A stretch of 48,703 bases of DNA from an uncultured Nitrospiraceae bacterium (lineage in GTDB: Bacteria; Nitrospirota; Thermodesulfovibrionia; Thermodesulfovibrionales; SM23-35): the NCBI GenBank assembly GCA_964639385.1, contig CAZXCW010000002.1:1-48703 (forward strand). The letters run 5' to 3'. Under the pieces are notes generated by a model, which was not told the DNA's origin, searched no databases, and saw nothing but the letters and a program-made list of their open reading frames with translations. Below are positions 23 through 29,269 of this stretch, one piece after another. Position 1 is the first letter of the stretch. Each line of letters opens with the position of its first letter. The position numbers and the translations under genes were made by a program.

Positions 23-178
23 TTATTCTTTTTCTTTTGTTACAAATTTCTCAGTCTCCTTGTCAAACTTCTCGTTACATCCCTTCGCACAGAAATAATA
101 CGTCCTTCCTTTGTAAACACTCGTCGCTGCTGCCTTTTTCTCATCTACTGTCATATTACATACAGGGTCTTTTGCCAT
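23..178 (-). CDS. YHS/TRASH-domain small metal-binding protein (51 aa, below the ORF-track size cutoff)
   Basis: My own minus-strand translation is MAKDPVCNMTVDEKKAAATSVYKGRTYYFCAKGCNEKFDKETEKFVTKEKE*. The DPVCxM...YYFC..GC pattern is typical of YHS domains. GGAGGTG lies 6 nt upstream of the ATG at 178..176, and the TAA stop is at 25..23. An ATG at 8..6 preceded by AGAGGAG may start a further minus-strand gene that runs off the window. Confidence 0.7.
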   Translation of the reverse strand: MAKDPVCNMTVDEKKAAATSVYKGRTYYFCAKGCNEKFDKETEKFVTKEKE

Positions 179-229
179 CGAACTCACCTCCTTTTTCTAA
201 CCAACCTTAAGCAAACAAAACAATCGCTG

Positions 230-354
230 ATGGCGGATGTAGTATTTGAGCGGATTTTTTTGCTGATAGTCCAATGAAAATATTCCAATATAAAGAGGCA
301 AAAACCTCGGAGGTCGGAACGACCGAGAATGAGCGAAGATACTGCATCCGCCAT
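230..354 (+). repeat. Structured intergenic repeat, copy A (~125 nt; closing stem + two internal hairpins)
   Basis: ATGGCGGATGTAGTAT (230..245) pairs with ATACTGCATCCGCCAT (339..354). It shares the blocks AGTATTTGAGCGG and GAGAATGAGCGAA with copies at 4993..5123 and 23711..23833. Confidence 0.75.
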
Positions 355-377
355 AGGTTTCACGAATAATTAAGTAA

Positions 378-1625
378 TTATTTTTTCTTTGCCCTTTGTT
401 TGCTTTGAAGCTCTTTAGCCTTTTCTTTAATCCATGACAGGCTTCGCTGCATCTCGCTCCAGCCATACCAAAATGCATAATCAGGATTTGCATGAAATGC
501 CCCCTGGAATGTTCTCATACGGTATTCAAGGAACATAATGAAAAGTTTTTGTTCAATCACTGTTGGGGCATCAGTGAATGTAAGCAGGTCAGGAAATGCA
601 TAAGCATAGCTTTTCGGTTTTTTAATTGTACCGTCTTTGTATAGGTTCGCAACAATACGAATTGCCCCAGCCATTAAATGATCTGCCTCTTTAATCATCT
701 GGTCGCCTTTTTTTAACTCTGCTTTTGCAAAATTGACGGAATGACACTGATTGCAGGTCTTCACCATTTTATCCCTTTCTTTCTGCCAATCTTCCTGTGT
801 CAGACGGGCTAAATCTGCGGCCTTAACAACATCAAGCCGTGCCGTTGGTTTCCCTTTAGGATCAAGCACGCCGAGCCCTTGAAGAATGGTAACACGGTCC
901 GCAGCCCACTGTTTGTCCTCGGGCATCGGGAGTCTTACTGCAAGAAATCCCCATGCTGTTCTATTAGCATGGTTCCCCTCCTGCATGTGGCAAGTCTGAC
1001 ATGTCGGTGCAGCAACCGTTTCAGGAAGAGTTCCGATCTGCTTCAGCAGATATCGAACACCGTGCTTAGAAGCGGAATACATCTCCCACTGTGGATGATC
1101 AATTCCCATGTGGCAGGTCCGGCAGGACTGTGGTTGACTGGCTTCTTTAATGGAAAATGCATGCCTTGTATGGCACGCATCGCATGAAGCAAGACCAAAA
1201 CCTCCGTCATCCTTTTTCAATTCTTTAATATCTGCCTCAGTCTTTAACCCAATTTTGTGACATCCACCACAGCCTTTCAATCCCTCCATCAATGCCATAG
1301 GTTGCCAATGAGCTGTTGGCATGGCTTTCATAGCAGCCCATGCAAGAGCATGCTTTCCAGACTTGAATTGTTGAACTTGTGCAGCGTGGCACACGGCACA
1401 GGTATCAGGTGTTGGAATTTTCACCTTTGCGACATCTTGAGCCGATTGGTGTTGATCGCCATGACATGATGAGCAGGCAACTCCGGCCTTGCTGTGCTTA
1501 CTGAGTTGCCAGTCATAGACAATACGTGGAGTAATATCCTTGTGACAATCGATACATACCTGCGCTGATGCAATGGAAACAAGAAAAAGACTTACGATAG
1601 AAACAATTATTATCCTGTAAACCAT
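378..1625 (-). CDS. Secreted octaheme c-type cytochrome, hydroxylamine-oxidoreductase (HAO)-like/octaheme reductase family
   Basis: Eight CxxCH motifs: CIDCH, CSSCH, CAVCH, CGGCH, CDACH, CRTCH, CQTCH, CNQCH. I moved the start to the internal ATG at 1625 (MVYRIIIVSIVSLFLVSIASAQV, a signal peptide) because AAGGAGGTG sits 4 nt upstream. The track's longer start at 1709 overlaps the upstream gene. The family call beyond 'octaheme' is by size and heme count only. Confidence 0.8.
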   Translation of the reverse strand: MVYRIIIVSIVSLFLVSIASAQVCIDCHKDITPRIVYDWQLSKHSKAGVACSSCHGDQHQSAQDVAKVKIPTPDTCAVCHAAQVQQFKSGKHALAWAAMKAMPTAHWQPMALMEGLKGCGGCHKIGLKTEADIKELKKDDGGFGLASCDACHTRHAFSIKEASQPQSCRTCHMGIDHPQWEMYSASKHGVRYLLKQIGTLPETVAAPTCQTCHMQEGNHANRTAWGFLAVRLPMPEDKQWAADRVTILQGLGVLDPKGKPTARLDVVKAADLARLTQEDWQKERDKMVKTCNQCHSVNFAKAELKKGDQMIKEADHLMAGAIRIVANLYKDGTIKKPKSYAYAFPDLLTFTDAPTVIEQKLFIMFLEYRMRTFQGAFHANPDYAFWYGWSEMQRSLSWIKEKAKELQSKQRAKKK

Positions 1626-4184: not shown

Positions 4185-4898
4185 TTAGGACATTGCGCTT
4201 TGATCACTGTATGAAAGAAGACGTGAAAGTGCCTCTTTGGCAGCAAAGGCCTGCGCTTCTTTTTTACTTTTTCCTGTACCCTTGCCAAACTTTTTCCCGG
4301 TTATAAAGACTTCAATCGTAAAAATTTTTTTGTGTTCCTCTCCTTCCTGTTTTATAACTCTGTAATCAGGTAGTGTACCGAATAAGAGTTGCGTTTTTTC
4401 TTGAAGTTCTGTCTTAAAATCATGGAGTTCATTAGAATGCATGATAACATCTATCTTTTCCCTGAACAACCTTAGTATAAGTTCTCTAACTTTTTTGTAA
4501 CCGCCGTCTAAGTAAACTGCTCCCAAAAAGGCTTCAACAGCATCTGCCAGAAGCGATTTTTTAGACCTGCCACCACTGGCCTCCTCGCCCTTTCCAAGCC
4601 TGAGATATCTTCCTAAAGATATAGAGTTAGCAACCTCAGAAAGGACAGATTCTTTTACGAGATAGGATTTAGTCTTAGCCATAACTGATTCTGTGAATTT
4701 TTTATCTAAAAAAAAGAGATACTCGACGATTACGAATCCGAGTATAGAATCGCCAAGAAATTCCAGCCTTTCATTATGGTCAGCTGATTTATCAGGATTT
4801 TCATGATAGAAAGACCTGTGTGTCAGAGCCTCTATGAGAAGGGCCTTATTTTTAAAAATGTAACCAAAATGTTTTTCTAATTCAGCAATATTTTCCAA
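4185..4898 (-). CDS. rnc: Ribonuclease III
   Basis: It has the ERLEFLGDSILG signature, a C-terminal dsRBD (GKGTGKSKKEAQAFAAKEAL), and a length of 237 aa. Confidence 0.95.
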   Translation of the reverse strand: MENIAELEKHFGYIFKNKALLIEALTHRSFYHENPDKSADHNERLEFLGDSILGFVIVEYLFFLDKKFTESVMAKTKSYLVKESVLSEVANSISLGRYLRLGKGEEASGGRSKKSLLADAVEAFLGAVYLDGGYKKVRELILRLFREKIDVIMHSNELHDFKTELQEKTQLLFGTLPDYRVIKQEGEEHKKIFTIEVFITGKKFGKGTGKSKKEAQAFAAKEALSRLLSYSDQSAMS

Positions 4899-4911: not shown

Positions 4912-5172
4912 ATCCCAAATAATGCAGATGTTGTGGAAAAATTTATTTTTTGATACCTTAGTGTACTTCTATTCATAAATACCTGTAGAGATAGCAAGGC
5001 ATAGTATTTGAGCGGTTTCTTTTGCCGATAGTCCATTAAAATACTCCAATATAAAGAAGCAAAAGCCTCGGAGGCCCTGACAAAGCTCGGGGGCGAGAAT
5101 GAGCGAAAATACTATGTCCTGCTTAAATACCGTTGTTCATAATAATTTAAAATAAATTCTTGAACAATGTCT
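4912..5172. mobile_element. Composite MITE-like element: same TIR family as 3381..3546, carrying structured repeat copy B
   Basis: The left TIR at 4912..4966 is ATCCCAAATAATGCAGATGTTGTGGAAAAATTTATTTTTTGATACCTTAGTGTAC. The right TIR at 5149..5172 is AAATAAATTCTTGAACAATGTCTA, a truncated reverse complement that abuts the fabF stop. Confidence 0.5.
4993..5123 (+). repeat. Structured intergenic repeat, copy B
   Basis: AGCAAGGCATAGTAT pairs with ATACTATGTCCTGCT. It contains the conserved AGTATTTGAGCGG and GAGAATGAGCGAA blocks. By eye it matches copy A at most positions over its full length. Confidence 0.75.
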
Positions 5173-6415
5173 AAATCTCGAGTTTTTTAAACAGGAGGCA
5201 GGCATTGGTTCCACCAAATCCAAAAGAATTAGATAAGGCATAATTAATCATCATTTTTCTTGCTTTATGAGGAATGAAATCAAGGTCACATTCAGGATCT
5301 GGATTGTCGAGATTTATTGTTGGGGGTGCCATATCATTATAAATACTGAGAACACTGATAACGGCCTCAACACCTCCTGCGGCACCCAGTAAATGTCCCA
5401 TCATGGATTTTGTCGAGCTGATTGCAACTTTATAGGCATGTTCTCCAAATACTGTCTTGATAGCTTGACTTTCAAGCTCATCTCCAGATTTTGTTGAAGT
5501 ACCATGTGCATTTATGTAGCTAACCTTTGAAGGGTCAACTCCTCCATCCTTTAATGCCACTGCCATGCATCTTGCAGCACCCTCACCGCTAGGAGAAGGG
5601 GAAGTAATATGATATGCATCAGCTGTCATACCATATCCGACTAACTCAGCATATATCTTTGCACCTCTATCAAGAGCGTTCTGAAGACTCTCAAGTATTA
5701 TTATACCTGCGCCCTCTCCTATTACAAATCCATCTCTATTTATATCAAAAGGTCTGCTTGCTTTTTCTGGCTCATCATTTCTTGTAGAAATGGCCTTCAT
5801 TGCATTAAATCCTCCTACTCCCATAGGTGTTATCACTGCTTCTGTACCCCCAGCTATCATGGCATCTGCATCACCCCTCTGAATTATCTTAAAGGCATCT
5901 CCAATCGAGTGACTTCCTGTAGCGCATGCAGTAGCTACTGCAGAGTTTGGCCCTTTGGCATTAAATTTTATGGATATCTGACCTGACGCAAGATTTATGG
6001 ATAACATCGGGACAAAAAAAGGTGTTATTCTTTTAGGCCCCTTCTCAAGGTAAATAGAGTGGTAGTATTCAATTGCGTGCAGGCCTCCCATGCCTGAACC
6101 AACAATAACACCTATTCTCCCTGCATTCCTGTCTGTTATCTTTAGACTAGAGTCATCAATAGCCATTGCTGTTGCGGCAAGAGAAAAATGTATAAAACGG
6201 TCCATCTTTTTAATTTCTTTAGGCTCTATGAAATCTTCAGGATTAAAACCTTTAACCTCTCCAGCTATCTGTGTAGGAAAGGCAGAGGCATCAAAAGAAG
6301 TTATCTTTTCAATACCAGATTTGCCATTGAGAAGATTTCCCCATGTAGTCTTTACACCTATACCGAGAGGTGTCACAAGACCAACACCTGTTACGACAAC
6401 TCTTTTCCTATCCAT
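5171..6415 (-). CDS. fabF: 3-oxoacyl-ACP synthase II
   Basis: A 414-aa KAS II protein with active-site context [19 protein letters not shown] and a C-terminal [11 protein letters not shown]. The start overlaps the acpP stop (TAATG). Confidence 0.95.
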
Positions 6416-22606: not shown

Positions 22607-22645
22607 AATAAATTTTTGAACAATGTCTGCATCATTCGGATTAAT
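22607..22645 (-). repeat. Solo copy of the MITE-type terminal repeat
   Basis: The reverse complement reads TTAATCCGAATGATGCAGACATTGTTCAAAAATTTATTA, nearly identical to 3381..3418. It abuts the obg stop codon. Confidence 0.55.
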
Positions 22646-23682
22646 CACTTCTGAAAAGGCTCTGTAGCGATGTTTCTTTTTCCTTTTGCTTTCTCAACCT
22701 TGGTTATAAGATAGGTTAATAATTTTTTAATCCCCTTTCCTGCCACTGCTGATATCGCAAAAAAATCAATGTCATTAGTTTTACAGTATTGTTTAAGCCT
22801 GTCAAGTCTCTTTTTGTCAGCTATGTCGAGCTTTGTAGCTACAACAATCTGATATTTATTATGGAGTGAAGGATTATATAAGCCAAGTTCTCTGTTGATC
22901 TTCTTGAAATTATCAACCGGATCTCCTTCTGACATATTTGATATATCTATTAAATGCAGAAGGACTGATGTACGCTCAACATGCCTGAGAAACTGAAAAC
23001 CAAGCCCGGCCCCTTTATACGCACCTTCTATTAAACCTGGTATATCCGCAACAACAAAGCTTTTAAAATTTTCAAGCTTAACCACGCCCAGGTTCGGCGT
23101 AAGAGTTGTAAAAGGATAATCAGCTATTTTCGGTTTAGCTGAAGATATAACCGATATAAGTGTAGATTTTCCAGCATTTGGAAGACCTATTAACCCAATA
23201 TCTGCAAGGAGTTTTAACTCAAGTATAAGCCATCTTTCTTTACCCCTCTCACCCGGCTGTGCAAACCTTGGGGCTTTTCTAACAGGGGTAGCAAAATGTG
23301 CATTGCCCAGCCCTCCCCTTCCGCCTTTAACCACAATAACATAACTTCCTTCTGATTCAAGATCTGCTATTATCTCTTTAGTACCTGCGTCCTTAATAAC
23401 TGTGCCTGTTGGAACAAGGATTGTTAAATCCTCACCACTTTCCCCACTCATTTTTTTCCCCATACCGTGTCTGCCTCGTTTTGCCTTATACTCACGTCTA
23501 TATTTCAGGTCAAGTAGGGTACTCAACTCATTCGTTGCTTTGATAGTTACATTTCCACCCCTTCCTCCGTCTCCACCATCAGGGCCGCCTCTGGGGACAT
23601 ATTTCTCTCTTCTGAAGCTGACGCACCCTCTTCCACCATCTCCAGCCTTTACATGTATCTTCACATAATCAACAAATTGCAT
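22645..23682 (-). CDS. obg: GTPase Obg/CgtA
   Basis: MQFVDYVKIHVKAGDGGRGCVSFRREK glycine-rich Obg fold, with G1 GLPNAGKST and G3 DIPGLIEGA. The length is 345 aa. Confidence 0.95.
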   Translation of the reverse strand: MQFVDYVKIHVKAGDGGRGCVSFRREKYVPRGGPDGGDGGRGGNVTIKATNELSTLLDLKYRREYKAKRGRHGMGKKMSGESGEDLTILVPTGTVIKDAGTKEIIADLESEGSYVIVVKGGRGGLGNAHFATPVRKAPRFAQPGERGKERWLILELKLLADIGLIGLPNAGKSTLISVISSAKPKIADYPFTTLTPNLGVVKLENFKSFVVADIPGLIEGAYKGAGLGFQFLRHVERTSVLLHLIDISNMSEGDPVDNFKKINRELGLYNPSLHNKYQIVVATKLDIADKKRLDRLKQYCKTNDIDFFAISAVAGKGIKKLLTYLITKVEKAKGKRNIATEPFQK

Positions 23683-23710
23683 GTTAGTCTTTTAATATTC
23701 ATTCTTAAGG

Positions 23711-23833
23711 AGCAGGCAGGACATGGTACTTTCGCTCATTATCGGTCTTATCGACCTCTCTACGAGTCGCAGACCGAGGTAAATTCTGTCTTCGAAAGAA
23801 TTTAAAACCGCTCAAATACTATGCCCTGTCATG
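23711..23833 (-). repeat. Structured intergenic repeat, copy C (inverted orientation)
   Basis: The reverse complement reads ...CAGGGCATAGTATTTGAGCGG...GATAATGAGCGAAAGTACCATGTCCTG... It has the same conserved junction blocks as copies A and B, but the two internal hairpins have different sequences. Confidence 0.7.
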
Positions 23834-23855
23834 AATACAACATATAAAACTATCC

Positions 23856-24018
23856 AATAAGACAGGAAAGGCTGGTGAAGAATTTTTATACGACACCTTA
23901 AAGTAAAACCCTTGAGGCGTAAACAAAAAAAATCATTAGTTGTTAAAGCACTTGCGATTACCATTCAATAATCTGTCGTCGATTATAAAAATTCTGAGAC
24001 AGTCTTTCCTGTCTTATT
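23856..24018. repeat. Long imperfect palindrome (two ~41-nt inverted arms, 78-nt spacer)
   Basis: The left arm at 23856..23896 is AATAAGACAGGAAAGGCTGGTGAAGAATTTTTATACGACAC. The reverse complement of 23975..24018 is AATAAGACAGGAAAGACTGTCTCAGAATTTTTATAATCGACGAC. Confidence 0.6.
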
Positions 24019-24084
24019 TTCTGGAAGATCAACTATCTTCTACCTAAGGAATAATAACCCATATAATGCACTATTTAGGTTAAC

Positions 24085-24115
24085 AAAAAAGGCGGGCAAA
24101 GAGCCCGCCTTTTTT
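24085..24115 (-). terminator. Bidirectional rho-independent terminator downstream of rpmA
   Basis: AAAAAA-GGCGGGC-AAAGA-GCCCGCC-TTTTTT forms a perfect 7-bp GC-rich stem with U-runs on both strands. It lies ~20 nt after the rpmA stop. Confidence 0.85.
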
Positions 24116-24133
24116 GTTAATTCACAATACTTC

Positions 24134-24406
24134 TTATTGAACTACTGATTGATCTGCTGGATAAACGCTTACCTGCAATCTTACCCTGTCTCTCCTTTCG
24201 AAGCTAACTATACCGTCAATCTTTGCAAAAAGGGTATCATCTGACCCTCTGCCAACATTCATGCCTGGATGAAACTTCGTTCCTCTCTGCCTTACAAGAA
24301 TATTACCCGCGCGAACAAACTGCCCTCCGAACCTTTTAACCCCAAGCCGTTTTGACTCGCTGTCGCGCCCATTCCTTGTACTACCTACACCCTTTTTATG
24401 TGCCAT
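24134..24406 (-). CDS. rpmA: 50S ribosomal protein L27
   Basis: [29 protein letters not shown] set the start at the ATG at 24406, which has GGAGG 5 nt upstream. The track start adds 4 aa. Confidence 0.95.
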
Positions 24407-24407
24407 C

Positions 24408-24725
24408 TCATCCTCCAAAAACTATCTCTTTAATCTTCAAAGATGTATAAGGTTGCCTGTGTCCCCTGAGTCTCCTAAAAACCTTACGCGGTTTCTGTTT
24501 AAACACCAAAACCTTTTTCGCCTTCCATATATCCTCAACAGTTGCTACAACCTTGGCTTCAGTGACATATGGGGAGCCATATATATTCGTGCCTTCCTTG
24601 GAGACCATAAGAACCTTGTCAAGAACAATCTCAGAACCTTTATCCAGAGAAAGCTTGTCAACTCTTAGGGTATCACCAGAAAAAACCTTGTATTGTTTCC
24701 CCCTATTTTCAACTATTGCATACAT
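24408..24725 (-). CDS. rplU: 50S ribosomal protein L21
   Basis: [14 protein letters not shown] is the canonical L21 N-terminus. I trimmed the start to the ATG at 24725. Confidence 0.92.
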
Positions 24726-29089: not shown

Positions 29090-29205
29090 CGCTCTGTCGA
29101 GCCTCTCTACCCTATGGGTCGTAGACGAGTCGTAGACCGAGATAGTCGGTGCGACTAAATCCATTCGAACAACTCTATCTCCAATCTTTTGCTGGATTTG
29201 TAACA
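29090..29205 (-). repeat. Diverged/partial relative of the structured repeat (copy D)
   Basis: It shares CTCGGTCT(A/G)CGACTCGT and AGAGAGG(C/T)CGA with copy C, but lacks the conserved closing-stem blocks. Confidence 0.4.
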
Positions 29206-29269
29206 ATTTTTATAAATAATCTGGGTTAGTAATTAGTCAAAAGAGAAAGAGAATTATATGCATTCGATT

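Follow-up and report, generated by a model that had tools for sequence, protein, structure and literature searches.

The repeat bcr1 of the Bacillus cereus group (Firmicutes) is an intergenic sequence of approximately 155 bp without an open reading frame (ORF), which is flanked by 5-bp direct repeats and is transcribed (PMC3184786). Its genomic distribution differs among related strains and its branched RNA fold is kept by compensatory changes (PMC3184786). [quoted passage not shown] The present analysis deals with a family of structured intergenic repeats in a stretch of 48,703 nt from an uncultured Nitrospiraceae bacterium (GenBank assembly GCA_964639385.1, contig CAZXCW010000002.1, positions 1 to 48,703; referred to as the window). 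We consider it probable that these repeats are copies of a previously undescribed MITE family, which is mobilised in trans and is analogous to bcr1, ERIC and Correia.

The window contains three intact copies, A and B on the plus and C on the minus strand, and additionally a decayed and 3'-truncated copy D on the minus strand (Table 1). An earlier note, made from the letters of this DNA, had recognised the first three by blocks shared near their 5' and 3' ends; the blocks GTATTTGAGCGG and AATGAGCGAARRTAC do occur exactly three times each in the window, with consistent order and spacing. The diverged fourth copy, which it had placed at 29090-29205, is real, as can be seen from its 5' terminal inverted repeat (TIR) and a small hairpin module shared with other copies, but it is decayed, has lost its 3' half including the 3' strand of the closing stem and the right terminal repeat, and is not seen as a full element by our covariance model R1. 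The model was built from 118 distinct copies, 115 found elsewhere and the three of the window; it recognises copies A, B and C with E values from 1e-33 to 4e-17 and, with filters switched off, no fourth full copy in the window.

Beyond the window, the element occurs in over 220 additional copies, all of them in metagenome-assembled genomes (MAGs) of Nitrospirota/Thermodesulfovibrionales and in sediment or groundwater metagenomes. For the genome sample, contigs representing one genome per species were searched with the pattern GTATTTGAGCGG-N55-85-AATGAGCGAA, which yielded at least 109 stretches; all of those listed belong to Nitrospirota/Thermodesulfovibrionales MAGs. A second, independent sample comprises 105 copies from 120 metagenome stretches. 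These were retrieved via a 21-mer of the junction between the helices P2 and P3 described below, without use of the junction strands, so that the conservation measured there is free of ascertainment bias. In the loci of the genome sample (loci are denoted by L and a number) R1 added approximately 20 copies with mutated cores. Viral contigs contain no real copies: R1 recognised none of 12 pattern matches, which are therefore regarded as chance. The high copy number expected from the window, where there is about one copy per 12-16 kb, was borne out by locus L009 with four copies in 8 kb.

The folded domain is closed by a stem of approximately 18 bp (P1), the outer part of which is variable among copies and the inner part of which reads GUAUUU/AAAUAC. 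The helix extends via tandem G·A/A·G pairs, followed by a G-C and a C-G pair (5'-GAGC-3' against 5'-GCGA-3'), into a three-way junction with the short joining strands NUU, C and AAU. P2 exists in three interchangeable forms, namely type a (YUUUUGCC...GGCAAAAR), whose internal loop GAUAGUC/AUAAAGA is conserved, type b, which is a simple hairpin (AAAUUCUUUC-GAA-GAAAGAAUUU), and the GC-rich type c. P3 opens with CUCG and a bulge (GAG or CAG), followed by a hairpin that varies in both length and sequence, and closes with CGAG. Both helices fold in every copy despite the replacement of their sequences between copies. The swapped hairpin AAAUUCU..AGAAUUU, seen first in copy C, is a recurrent subtype of the family, and the second hairpin, noticed behind CCUCGG in three copies, is present in every copy.

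That these repeats form a three-way junction with conserved strands and compensatory changes had been proposed from the window copies, in each of which P1 is indeed paired, and was confirmed on the 118 copies of the model and then on the 105 independent ones. Within 118 sequences and 39 pairs, 91.0% of the cells are paired compared with 76.6% in shuffles (none of 500 reached the observed value), 599 cells show double changes compared with 158, and the covariation score amounts to 0.394 compared with 0.161. Sliding the 3' partner by 1-3 columns lowers the pairing to 34-50%. Compensatory changes were detected by RNAalifold in 13 of 20 P1 pairs. The strong covariation speaks against pairing by chance among three copies, a reservation of the earlier note, and its T:A to C:G change in the first hairpin is real, the pair being UA in 30, UG in 30, CG in 23 and AU in 10 cases across the family. 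P1 is not a palindrome taken over from the target, a possibility which we discarded, as the P1 sequences are homologous among copies (consensus GGCAGGAYATAG). Hardly any variation is seen in the junction strands UUUGAGCGG and CGAGAAUGAGCGA; per position, conservation in the metagenome sample is 92-99% for UUUGAGCGG and 98-100% for CGAGAAUGAG, compared with 75-90% in the neighbouring stem.

Selection on structure, as supposed beforehand, acts on one strand. For P1, the ratio of G·U pairs to A·C mismatches is about 147:20 among the genome copies; among the metagenome copies it is 134:25, with 87% Watson-Crick pairs. G·U thus outnumbers A·C five- to sevenfold, and it follows that a single strand is the folded one; in the window copies, the closing-stem G·U pairs turn into A·C mismatches on the opposite strand. 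Ordinary mutation bias of replication or transcription would, if anything, act in the opposite direction. Selection on host mRNAs was rejected as the source of the excess: the ratio is equal in all four gene contexts (71:13 for copies antisense to both neighbours, 34:6 for copies sense to both, 20:4 for convergent and 15:5 for divergent arrangements), and the fold therefore serves the element. It would most likely act in the sense-strand transcript of the element, as proposed for bcr1; a role of the folded single strand in the course of mobilisation has a lower probability and ranks second.

No named RNA family had been recognised in the window copies, and neither Rfam nor literature searches revealed a described repeat or RNA family that matches them. 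At gathering thresholds, Rfam 15 (4227 models, including self-cleaving ribozymes and riboswitches) gave no match overlapping any copy in the window and 24 loci, and nothing meaningful appeared there at E<=10 or E<=1. Searching the literature by organism, repeat terms and core sequences, we found no description of the element.

Much of this conservation could also be expected from a family of structured RNA genes, in which mobility is secondary. The P1/three-way-junction domain would then be a protein-binding small RNA or a self-cleaving ribozyme, spread by riding in a transposon or by capture by one, with copies kept by selection on the RNA. Junction strands that stay 92-100% conserved while stems and terminal repeats drift would suit such genes, as would pairing which is strand-specific irrespective of the direction of host transcription and the modular exchange of hairpins about a constant core, which small ribozymes also show. 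A perfect 22-nt core and the full P1 are even kept by copies A, B and C despite degenerate terminal repeats, and the tandem G·A pairs beside the junction resemble, judged by their sequence, protein-binding or tertiary motifs. We nevertheless regard RNA genes as quite unlikely, since the 4227 Rfam models, all known self-cleaving ribozymes among them, gave no match and signals for an independent transcript were not found: the scanned copies lack a sigma-70-like promoter and the family lacks a conserved terminator, the sole recurrent terminator-like site (GAGGCUUUUGCCUC with a U-run) lying on the antisense strand of P2 type a only. Moreover, most copies are antisense in operon spacers, where such a transcript would be unexpected, there is no recurrent neighbour gene, decay and internal deletions are those of selfish repeats, and the copy number in the window and in L009 far exceeds that of typical RNA gene families.

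The ends of the element speak for transposition. Similarity among paralogous copies reaches just some tens of bases past the core, and well-preserved units measure 155-196 bp, with a long subtype of about 260 bp. They are bounded by TIRs of approximately 17 nt (5'-CCCRKATTATTCAYAAA ... TTTRTGAATAAWSYGGG-3'), which are clear in recent subfamilies, e.g., one MAG with 14 near-identical copies of 158 bp and a second with about 12 copies that measure 184-185 bp. Since ungapped and gapped self-complementarity scores of the flanks under-detect imperfect terminal repeats, the position of the motif was used as evidence. At a fixed distance from the core, the TIR motif occurs on at least one side in 55 of 111 copies and on both sides in 24; TIR pairs total 46, and every TIR-bounded unit of 155-196 bp has the core inside. 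The four nucleotides outside the termini read YTAR on both sides. Where these 4-mers are non-palindromic, left and right are equal in 11 copies (CTAA/CTAA, TTAG/TTAG, CTAT/CTAT) and reverse-complementary in one, and near-identical copies carry different 4-mers (CTAA, TTAG, CTAT, TTAA). Judged by these flanks, YTAR is presumably a 4-bp target-site duplication, with direct repeats favoured 11 to 1.

The sole copy with inverted flanking 4-mers (L082:4300-4520) splits a perfect palindrome that resembles a terminator exactly in its middle (GCGGATGG-CTAA[element]TTAG-CCATCCGC, then a T-run). The idea of a general insertion into terminator hairpins, derived from this copy, was dropped, as flank complementarity is at the level of chance in the other 45 copies.

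Mobility is further indicated by orthologous sites that are filled in one genome and empty in another, namely L075 (filled) and L046 (empty) as well as L056 (filled) and L085 (empty). In the window, copy C occupies the spacer between rpmA and obg; in L100 this spacer is empty, and in L018 it carries a type a copy in the opposite orientation, an independent insertion of another subtype. The window itself belongs to the lineage of these loci, with proteins, among them Obg and those on the rpmA side, that are 71-85% identical to those of L018, L100 and L068. Decay proceeds by point mutation and by deletion between two TGAGCG direct repeats. The repeats are thus shorter than 400 bp, contain no conserved ORF, possess TIRs and a target duplication and are dispersed with presence/absence differences, as is characteristic of MITEs. 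Just one ATG is conserved, and the ORFs which start there have a median of 15 aa and an unconserved sequence; a coding or leader function of GGAG..AUGAGCGAA was discarded for their shortness and lack of conservation, and GGAG reads GCAG in about a quarter of the copies.

YTAR is the duplication motif of IS5 (PMC10359306). Taken with the TIRs, a 4-bp duplication of this kind suggests a DDE transposase of the IS5 type as the probable partner, the family being assigned from the duplication motif. Such a transposase, encoded elsewhere in the genome, would recognise the terminal repeats of the MITE, which is non-coding and approximately 155-265 bp long, and would insert it at YTAR sites with duplication of these 4 bp. 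As YTAR holds TAA or TAG, insertions often lie on a stop codon or a few tens of bases after it; of 41 copies, 6 have a duplication that falls precisely on the stop codon of the neighbouring ORF. An insertion at or just past a stop codon would leave the gene intact, by which copies would come to lie in the short spacers of housekeeping operons. The interior of the element is more than filler, as one of its strands folds from the 18-bp closing stem through the tandem G·A and two G-C pairs into the three-way junction.

A different partner had been suspected in the earlier note, i.e., a RAYT or an IS200/IS605 TnpA acting on single-stranded DNA, and the repeats would accordingly be REP/BIME-like or IS200/IS605-derived palindromic elements (PATE), moved by a Y1/HUH transposase. 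Recognition of a folded strand by the transposase would account for strand-specific hairpins, for pairing on one strand and for the tolerance of G·T, and high-copy intergenic palindromic repeats are typical of this class. REPs are units of 20-40 nt with a GTAG head, which lack TIRs and target duplications and occur in clusters of alternating orientation. Neither such units nor alternating BIME clusters were seen, the copies being single and dispersed, and TIRs with a 4-bp target duplication are not products of HUH single-strand transposition. No Y1 transposase gene recurs near the copies. The link with gene direction of approximately 74% (see below) would be tighter than a replication-strand rule combined with a typical gene-strand bias allows, and the folded strand, opposite to most genes, would not be the lagging-strand template for co-oriented genes. 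An origin of this kind is therefore very improbable, and the ends indicate the DDE transposase instead.

Several observations weigh against a MITE of the IS5 type. In just about 16-20% of the copies the flanks score as significant mutual inverted repeats, and about half of the copies have no recognisable terminal-repeat motif on either side, which implies that many copies are old or that the extent of the mobile unit is not constant. At the filled and empty sites the flanking genes are just 75-80% identical, so that neither precise boundaries nor the duplication can be made out there. A transposase with matching terminal repeats was found neither in the window nor in approximately 230 fetched loci (about 1.5 Mb), and two candidates for a full-length insertion sequence (IS), L156 and L195, with TIR pairs 1.2 kb apart, proved to be two MITEs around a host gene (prmC and a gene for an Fe-S protein, respectively). 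Furthermore, the strand-specific and near-invariant junction is not needed by a cut-and-paste DDE mechanism and is left unexplained by the MITE model. The same holds for the orientation towards genes: the gene on the 3' side of the element converges on it in 66 of 90 copies of the genome sample and in 53 of 70 of the second, i.e., the 3' end of the element faces the 3' end of a gene in 119 of 160 copies (74%).

The two copies in L195 (421-551 and 1414-1543) are in the same orientation and flank a single gene for an Fe-S cluster protein of 269 aa; the pair spans 1176 bp from outer end to outer end, reminiscent of a composite transposon. A recurrent partner in cis was not detected, as all-against-all clustering of 785 flanking ORFs returned generic families (sensor kinases, ABC ATPases) and syntenic orthologues, with no recurring transposase, reverse transcriptase or nuclease.

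Three traits set the element apart from an ordinary MITE: conservation is highest in an asymmetric junction of the interior and not at the ends, pairing is maintained on one strand in any context, and hairpins are swapped as modules. An active RNA inside the transposon, either a new self-cleaving ribozyme or an RNA which binds the transposase or a host factor, would explain why the junction is more conserved than the TIRs, why one strand pairs and why hairpins are freely exchanged. We hold this to be unlikely; if it were true, a bacterial DDE-type MITE would rely on an internally encoded structured RNA for its mobility or for the control of its copy number.

The orientation bias is present for all P2 types. 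An account in terms of the antisense terminator-like site hence fails, because this site is limited to type a. The bias may reflect selection against read-through in sense orientation or an asymmetry of the ends acting on a neighbouring start codon; for the gene on the 5' side of the element there is no preference. Copies antisense to both neighbours outnumber those sense to both by 48 to 18 and 33 to 11 in the two samples. These numbers, and the antisense position towards the downstream gene in 66 of 90 and 53 of 70 copies, also bear on a cis-regulatory leader or riboswitch-like element acting on adjacent genes, for which the conserved structured junction and the sense-oriented copy C directly upstream of obg could be adduced. 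With neighbours as unrelated as a multihaem cytochrome, rnc, fabF, obg, an M50 peptidase and many others, and with an obg-upstream spacer that is empty in L100 and oppositely filled in L018, such a function is hardly conceivable. The preference of the earlier note for a mobile element over a leader, based on inconstant orientation (copies A and B antisense to their neighbours, C sense) and on the location of copy B within a TIR-bounded element, was well founded: both observations hold, and TIRs, target-site duplications and filled and empty orthologous sites have been added.

Table 1. Features of the four copies in the window. Bits, score of covariance model R1; z, z-score of the sense-strand fold against shuffles.
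Feature	Position	Strand	Basis or content
Copy A, whole unit (approximate)	197..378	+	read against terminal-repeat consensus
Copy A, left terminal repeat, degenerate	197-220	+	CTAA + CCAACCTTAAGCAAACAAAA
Copy A, right terminal repeat, degenerate	358-374	+	TTTCACGAATAATTAAG
Copy A, structured domain	230..354	+	119.9 bits; z -6.8; alignment
Copy A, block pair GTATTTGAGCGG/AATGAGCGAARRTAC	242-253/328-342	+	
Copy A, parts			P1 230-247/337-354; GAGCGG 248-253; P2 (type a) 257-304; P3 306-327; AAUGAGCGA 328-336
Copy A, neighbours			multihaem cytochrome c gene (378-1709, -); small Cys-rich ORF starting at 178 (-)
Copy B, whole unit of the long subtype, bounded by TIRs, with a shortened 3' terminus	4914..5174	+	inverted repeat I2
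Copy B, outer end	4914-4929	+	CCCAAATAATGCAGAT, TTAT before it
Copy B, outer inverted-repeat arms	4926-4949/5149-5172		24 nt, 79% complementary
Copy B, inner TIR-like block	4962..4979	+	TGTACTTCTATTCATAAA, TTAG before it at 4958-4961; match to consensus CCCRKATTATTCAYAAA
Copy B, structured domain	4993..5123	+	112.7 bits; z -3.2
Copy B, block pair GTATTTGAGCGG/AATGAGCGAARRTAC	5004-5015/5098-5112	+	
Copy B, parts			P1 4993-5009/5106-5123; GAGCGG 5010-5015; P2 (type a) ~5019-5066; P3 ~5068-5097; AAUGAGCGA 5098-5106
Copy B, neighbours			fabF (5171-6415, -); rnc (4185-4898, -)
Copy C, whole unit (approximate)	23684..23849	-	outer stem in extended fold; terminal-repeat consensus
Copy C, left terminal repeat, degenerate	23830-23846	-	TATATGTTGTATTCATG
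Copy C, right terminal repeat, degenerate	23688-23706	-	AAGAATGAATATTAAAAGA
Copy C, structured domain	23711..23835	-	64.6 bits; z -3.7; alignment; P2 is type b hairpin (AAAUUCUUUCGAAGACAGAAUUU); P3 with extra hairpin
Copy C, block pair GTATTTGAGCGG/AATGAGCGAARRTAC	23808-23819/23726-23740	-	
Copy C, extra small hairpin module, inserted at 5' side of P3	23757..23775	-	GGUCUGCGACUCGUAGAG
Copy C, neighbours			rpmA (24134-24418, -); obg (22645-23682, -)
Copy D, decayed and 3'-truncated	29090..29229	-	alignment; terminal-repeat match; unseen by R1 as full copy
Copy D, 5' part		-	CTAA (29226-29229); intact 5' terminal repeat CCCAGATTATTTATAAA (29209-29225); P1 5' strand GGAGATAGAG
Copy D, continued		-	degenerate core TTGTTCGAATGG, module CTCGGTCTACGACTCGT, then ..CAGAGCG
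Copy D, neighbours			MacB-like permease gene; M50 peptidase gene

As an inverted repeat, the flanks of copy A reach 11.0, compared with 10.1 at the 99th percentile of the null. The Cys-rich ORF next to it (26-178, minus strand) encodes 51 aa (MAKDPVCNMTVDEKKAAATSVYKGRTYYFCAKGCNEKFDKETEKFVTKEKE) and has a ribosome-binding site just 5 nt away from where the copy begins on the left; the Cys pattern presumably recalls YHS/TRASH metal-binding domains. At the 3' edge of copy B, the CTAA at 5171-5174 holds the stop codon of fabF. This copy belongs to the longer subtype, and its flanks are conserved in the metagenome copies L224, L239, L221 and L181. Copy B directly follows fabF and is located 16 nt upstream of the start of rnc, the gene for RNase III (Pfam Ribonucleas_3_3 and dsrm), and it is able to form a hairpin of approximately 130 nt or longer on either strand. 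RNase III cuts long double-stranded RNA, and the E. coli enzyme autoregulates via a hairpin in its own leader. The position of copy B beside rnc may be a coincidence.

The right end of copy C abuts the start of obg, with CTAA (23684-23687) one base upstream of the start codon (23680-23682). Downstream of rpmA, at 24076-24123, there is a strong hairpin resembling a bidirectional intrinsic terminator (AAAAAAGGCGGGC..GCCCGCCUUUUUU). The approximately 240 nt which separate it from copy C contain a weak R1 match (23855-24018, plus strand; 12.3 bits, E 0.18) and the terminal-repeat-like sequence CAGATTATTGAATGG; the stretch 23855-24018 may be another decayed copy. The alignment further revealed that the small hairpin module (GGUCUACGACUCGUAGAG) inside P3 is common to copies C (23757-23775) and D (29119-29142), both on the minus strand, to the copy in L006 (6341-6474) and to both copies in L090 (1725-1842, 2740-2894). 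Other small GC-rich hairpins were observed in P2 or P3 loops, namely CCUCCGCCAGAGGCGGAG in L045, CCUGCCUGCUGGCAGGCAGG in L002 and GCCGCAGGCGAGGCG in L027 and L054. It seems that still smaller palindromes can be taken up by the element or target it for insertion. The orthologous copies L010:1148-1286 and L012:409-540, whose flanks are approximately 92% identical, are near-identical with exception of the whole P3 (UCCCGAUUUUAUCGGAG compared with GGCAAUAGCC), which suggests that paralogous copies have undergone conversion or recombination with each other. Genes for stable RNAs are frequently found no more than 30-40 nt from a copy (tRNA and signal recognition particle (SRP) RNA; 6S RNA and tmRNA genes also occur in the same loci): the copy in L012 adjoins an SRP RNA (573-670) and a tRNA, and the four copies in L009 are interleaved with three tRNA genes.

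Thermodesulfovibrionales are a sulfate-reducing branch of the Nitrospirota rich in uncultivated members. As far as our searches show, the element is the first high-copy mobile repeat described for them. Masking or annotation of the copies is advisable, lest they be mistaken for regulatory RNAs, since they are found on stop codons, by start codons and close to genes for tRNA, SRP RNA and other RNAs. The analysis has yielded the covariance model and an extensive alignment in which covariation is unusually clean, and presence or absence of copies can be used as a strain or population marker. The puzzle lies in a transposon which should need only its ends and yet keeps an internal, strand-specific three-way junction with invariant nucleotides. 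If the junction proves to be an active RNA, DDE-type MITEs would be linked to RNA-based control; if not, the element would be one more structured MITE like bcr1 or ERIC.

Compared with known systems, the element resembles REP/BIME-RAYT repeats as a high-copy extragenic palindrome that is often found just past stop codons. It differs by a unit of at least 125 nt, by TIRs with a target duplication, by single dispersed copies and by the lack of a recurrent neighbour gene. PATEs derived from IS200/IS605 have subterminal hairpins, no TIRs and no target duplication, and insert 3' of a fixed tetra- or pentanucleotide, in contrast to the TIRs and the 4-bp duplication found here. Hammerhead, twister, hatchet and pistol ribozymes in repeats are likewise multi-copy, of approximately 60-130 nt, with helices that radiate from a junction, and combine conserved single-stranded junction nucleotides with variable peripheral stems; no Rfam ribozyme matched the present element even at E<=10, however, and according to our own reading the joining strands NUU, C and AAU, flanked by GAGCGG/GAGCGA, are unlike the hammerhead core CUGAUGA/GAAA. 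ISs of the IS5 group and MITEs derived from them share the TIRs and the 4-bp YTAR duplication. A full-length IS of this group carries the transposase gene, whereas neither was found with the present ends in the window or the fetched loci.

Like Correia/CREE, RUP, ERIC/IRU, Chunjie and QMITE, the element is shorter than 300 bp, AT-rich, intergenic and often situated within operons, and it comprises many copies, size variants and truncated copies. Those MITEs have their conservation in the terminal repeats and form essentially one long hairpin from their ends, whereas here the internal asymmetric junction is most conserved, pairing is strand-specific and peripheral hairpins are exchanged as modules. 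The closest functional analogue is bcr1, reportedly the subject of studies by Okstad in 2004 and Klevan in 2007: it is likewise a dispersed, ORF-less repeat with short direct repeats, an uneven distribution and a compensated branched fold. Transcription has been shown for bcr1, whereas a transcript of the present element is putative. The direct repeats of bcr1 measure 5 bp, compared with 4-bp YTAR and TIRs of approximately 17 nt here, and its fold is cruciform-like with two independent stem-loops, whereas in the present family a long closing stem leads into a three-way junction with near-invariant strands.

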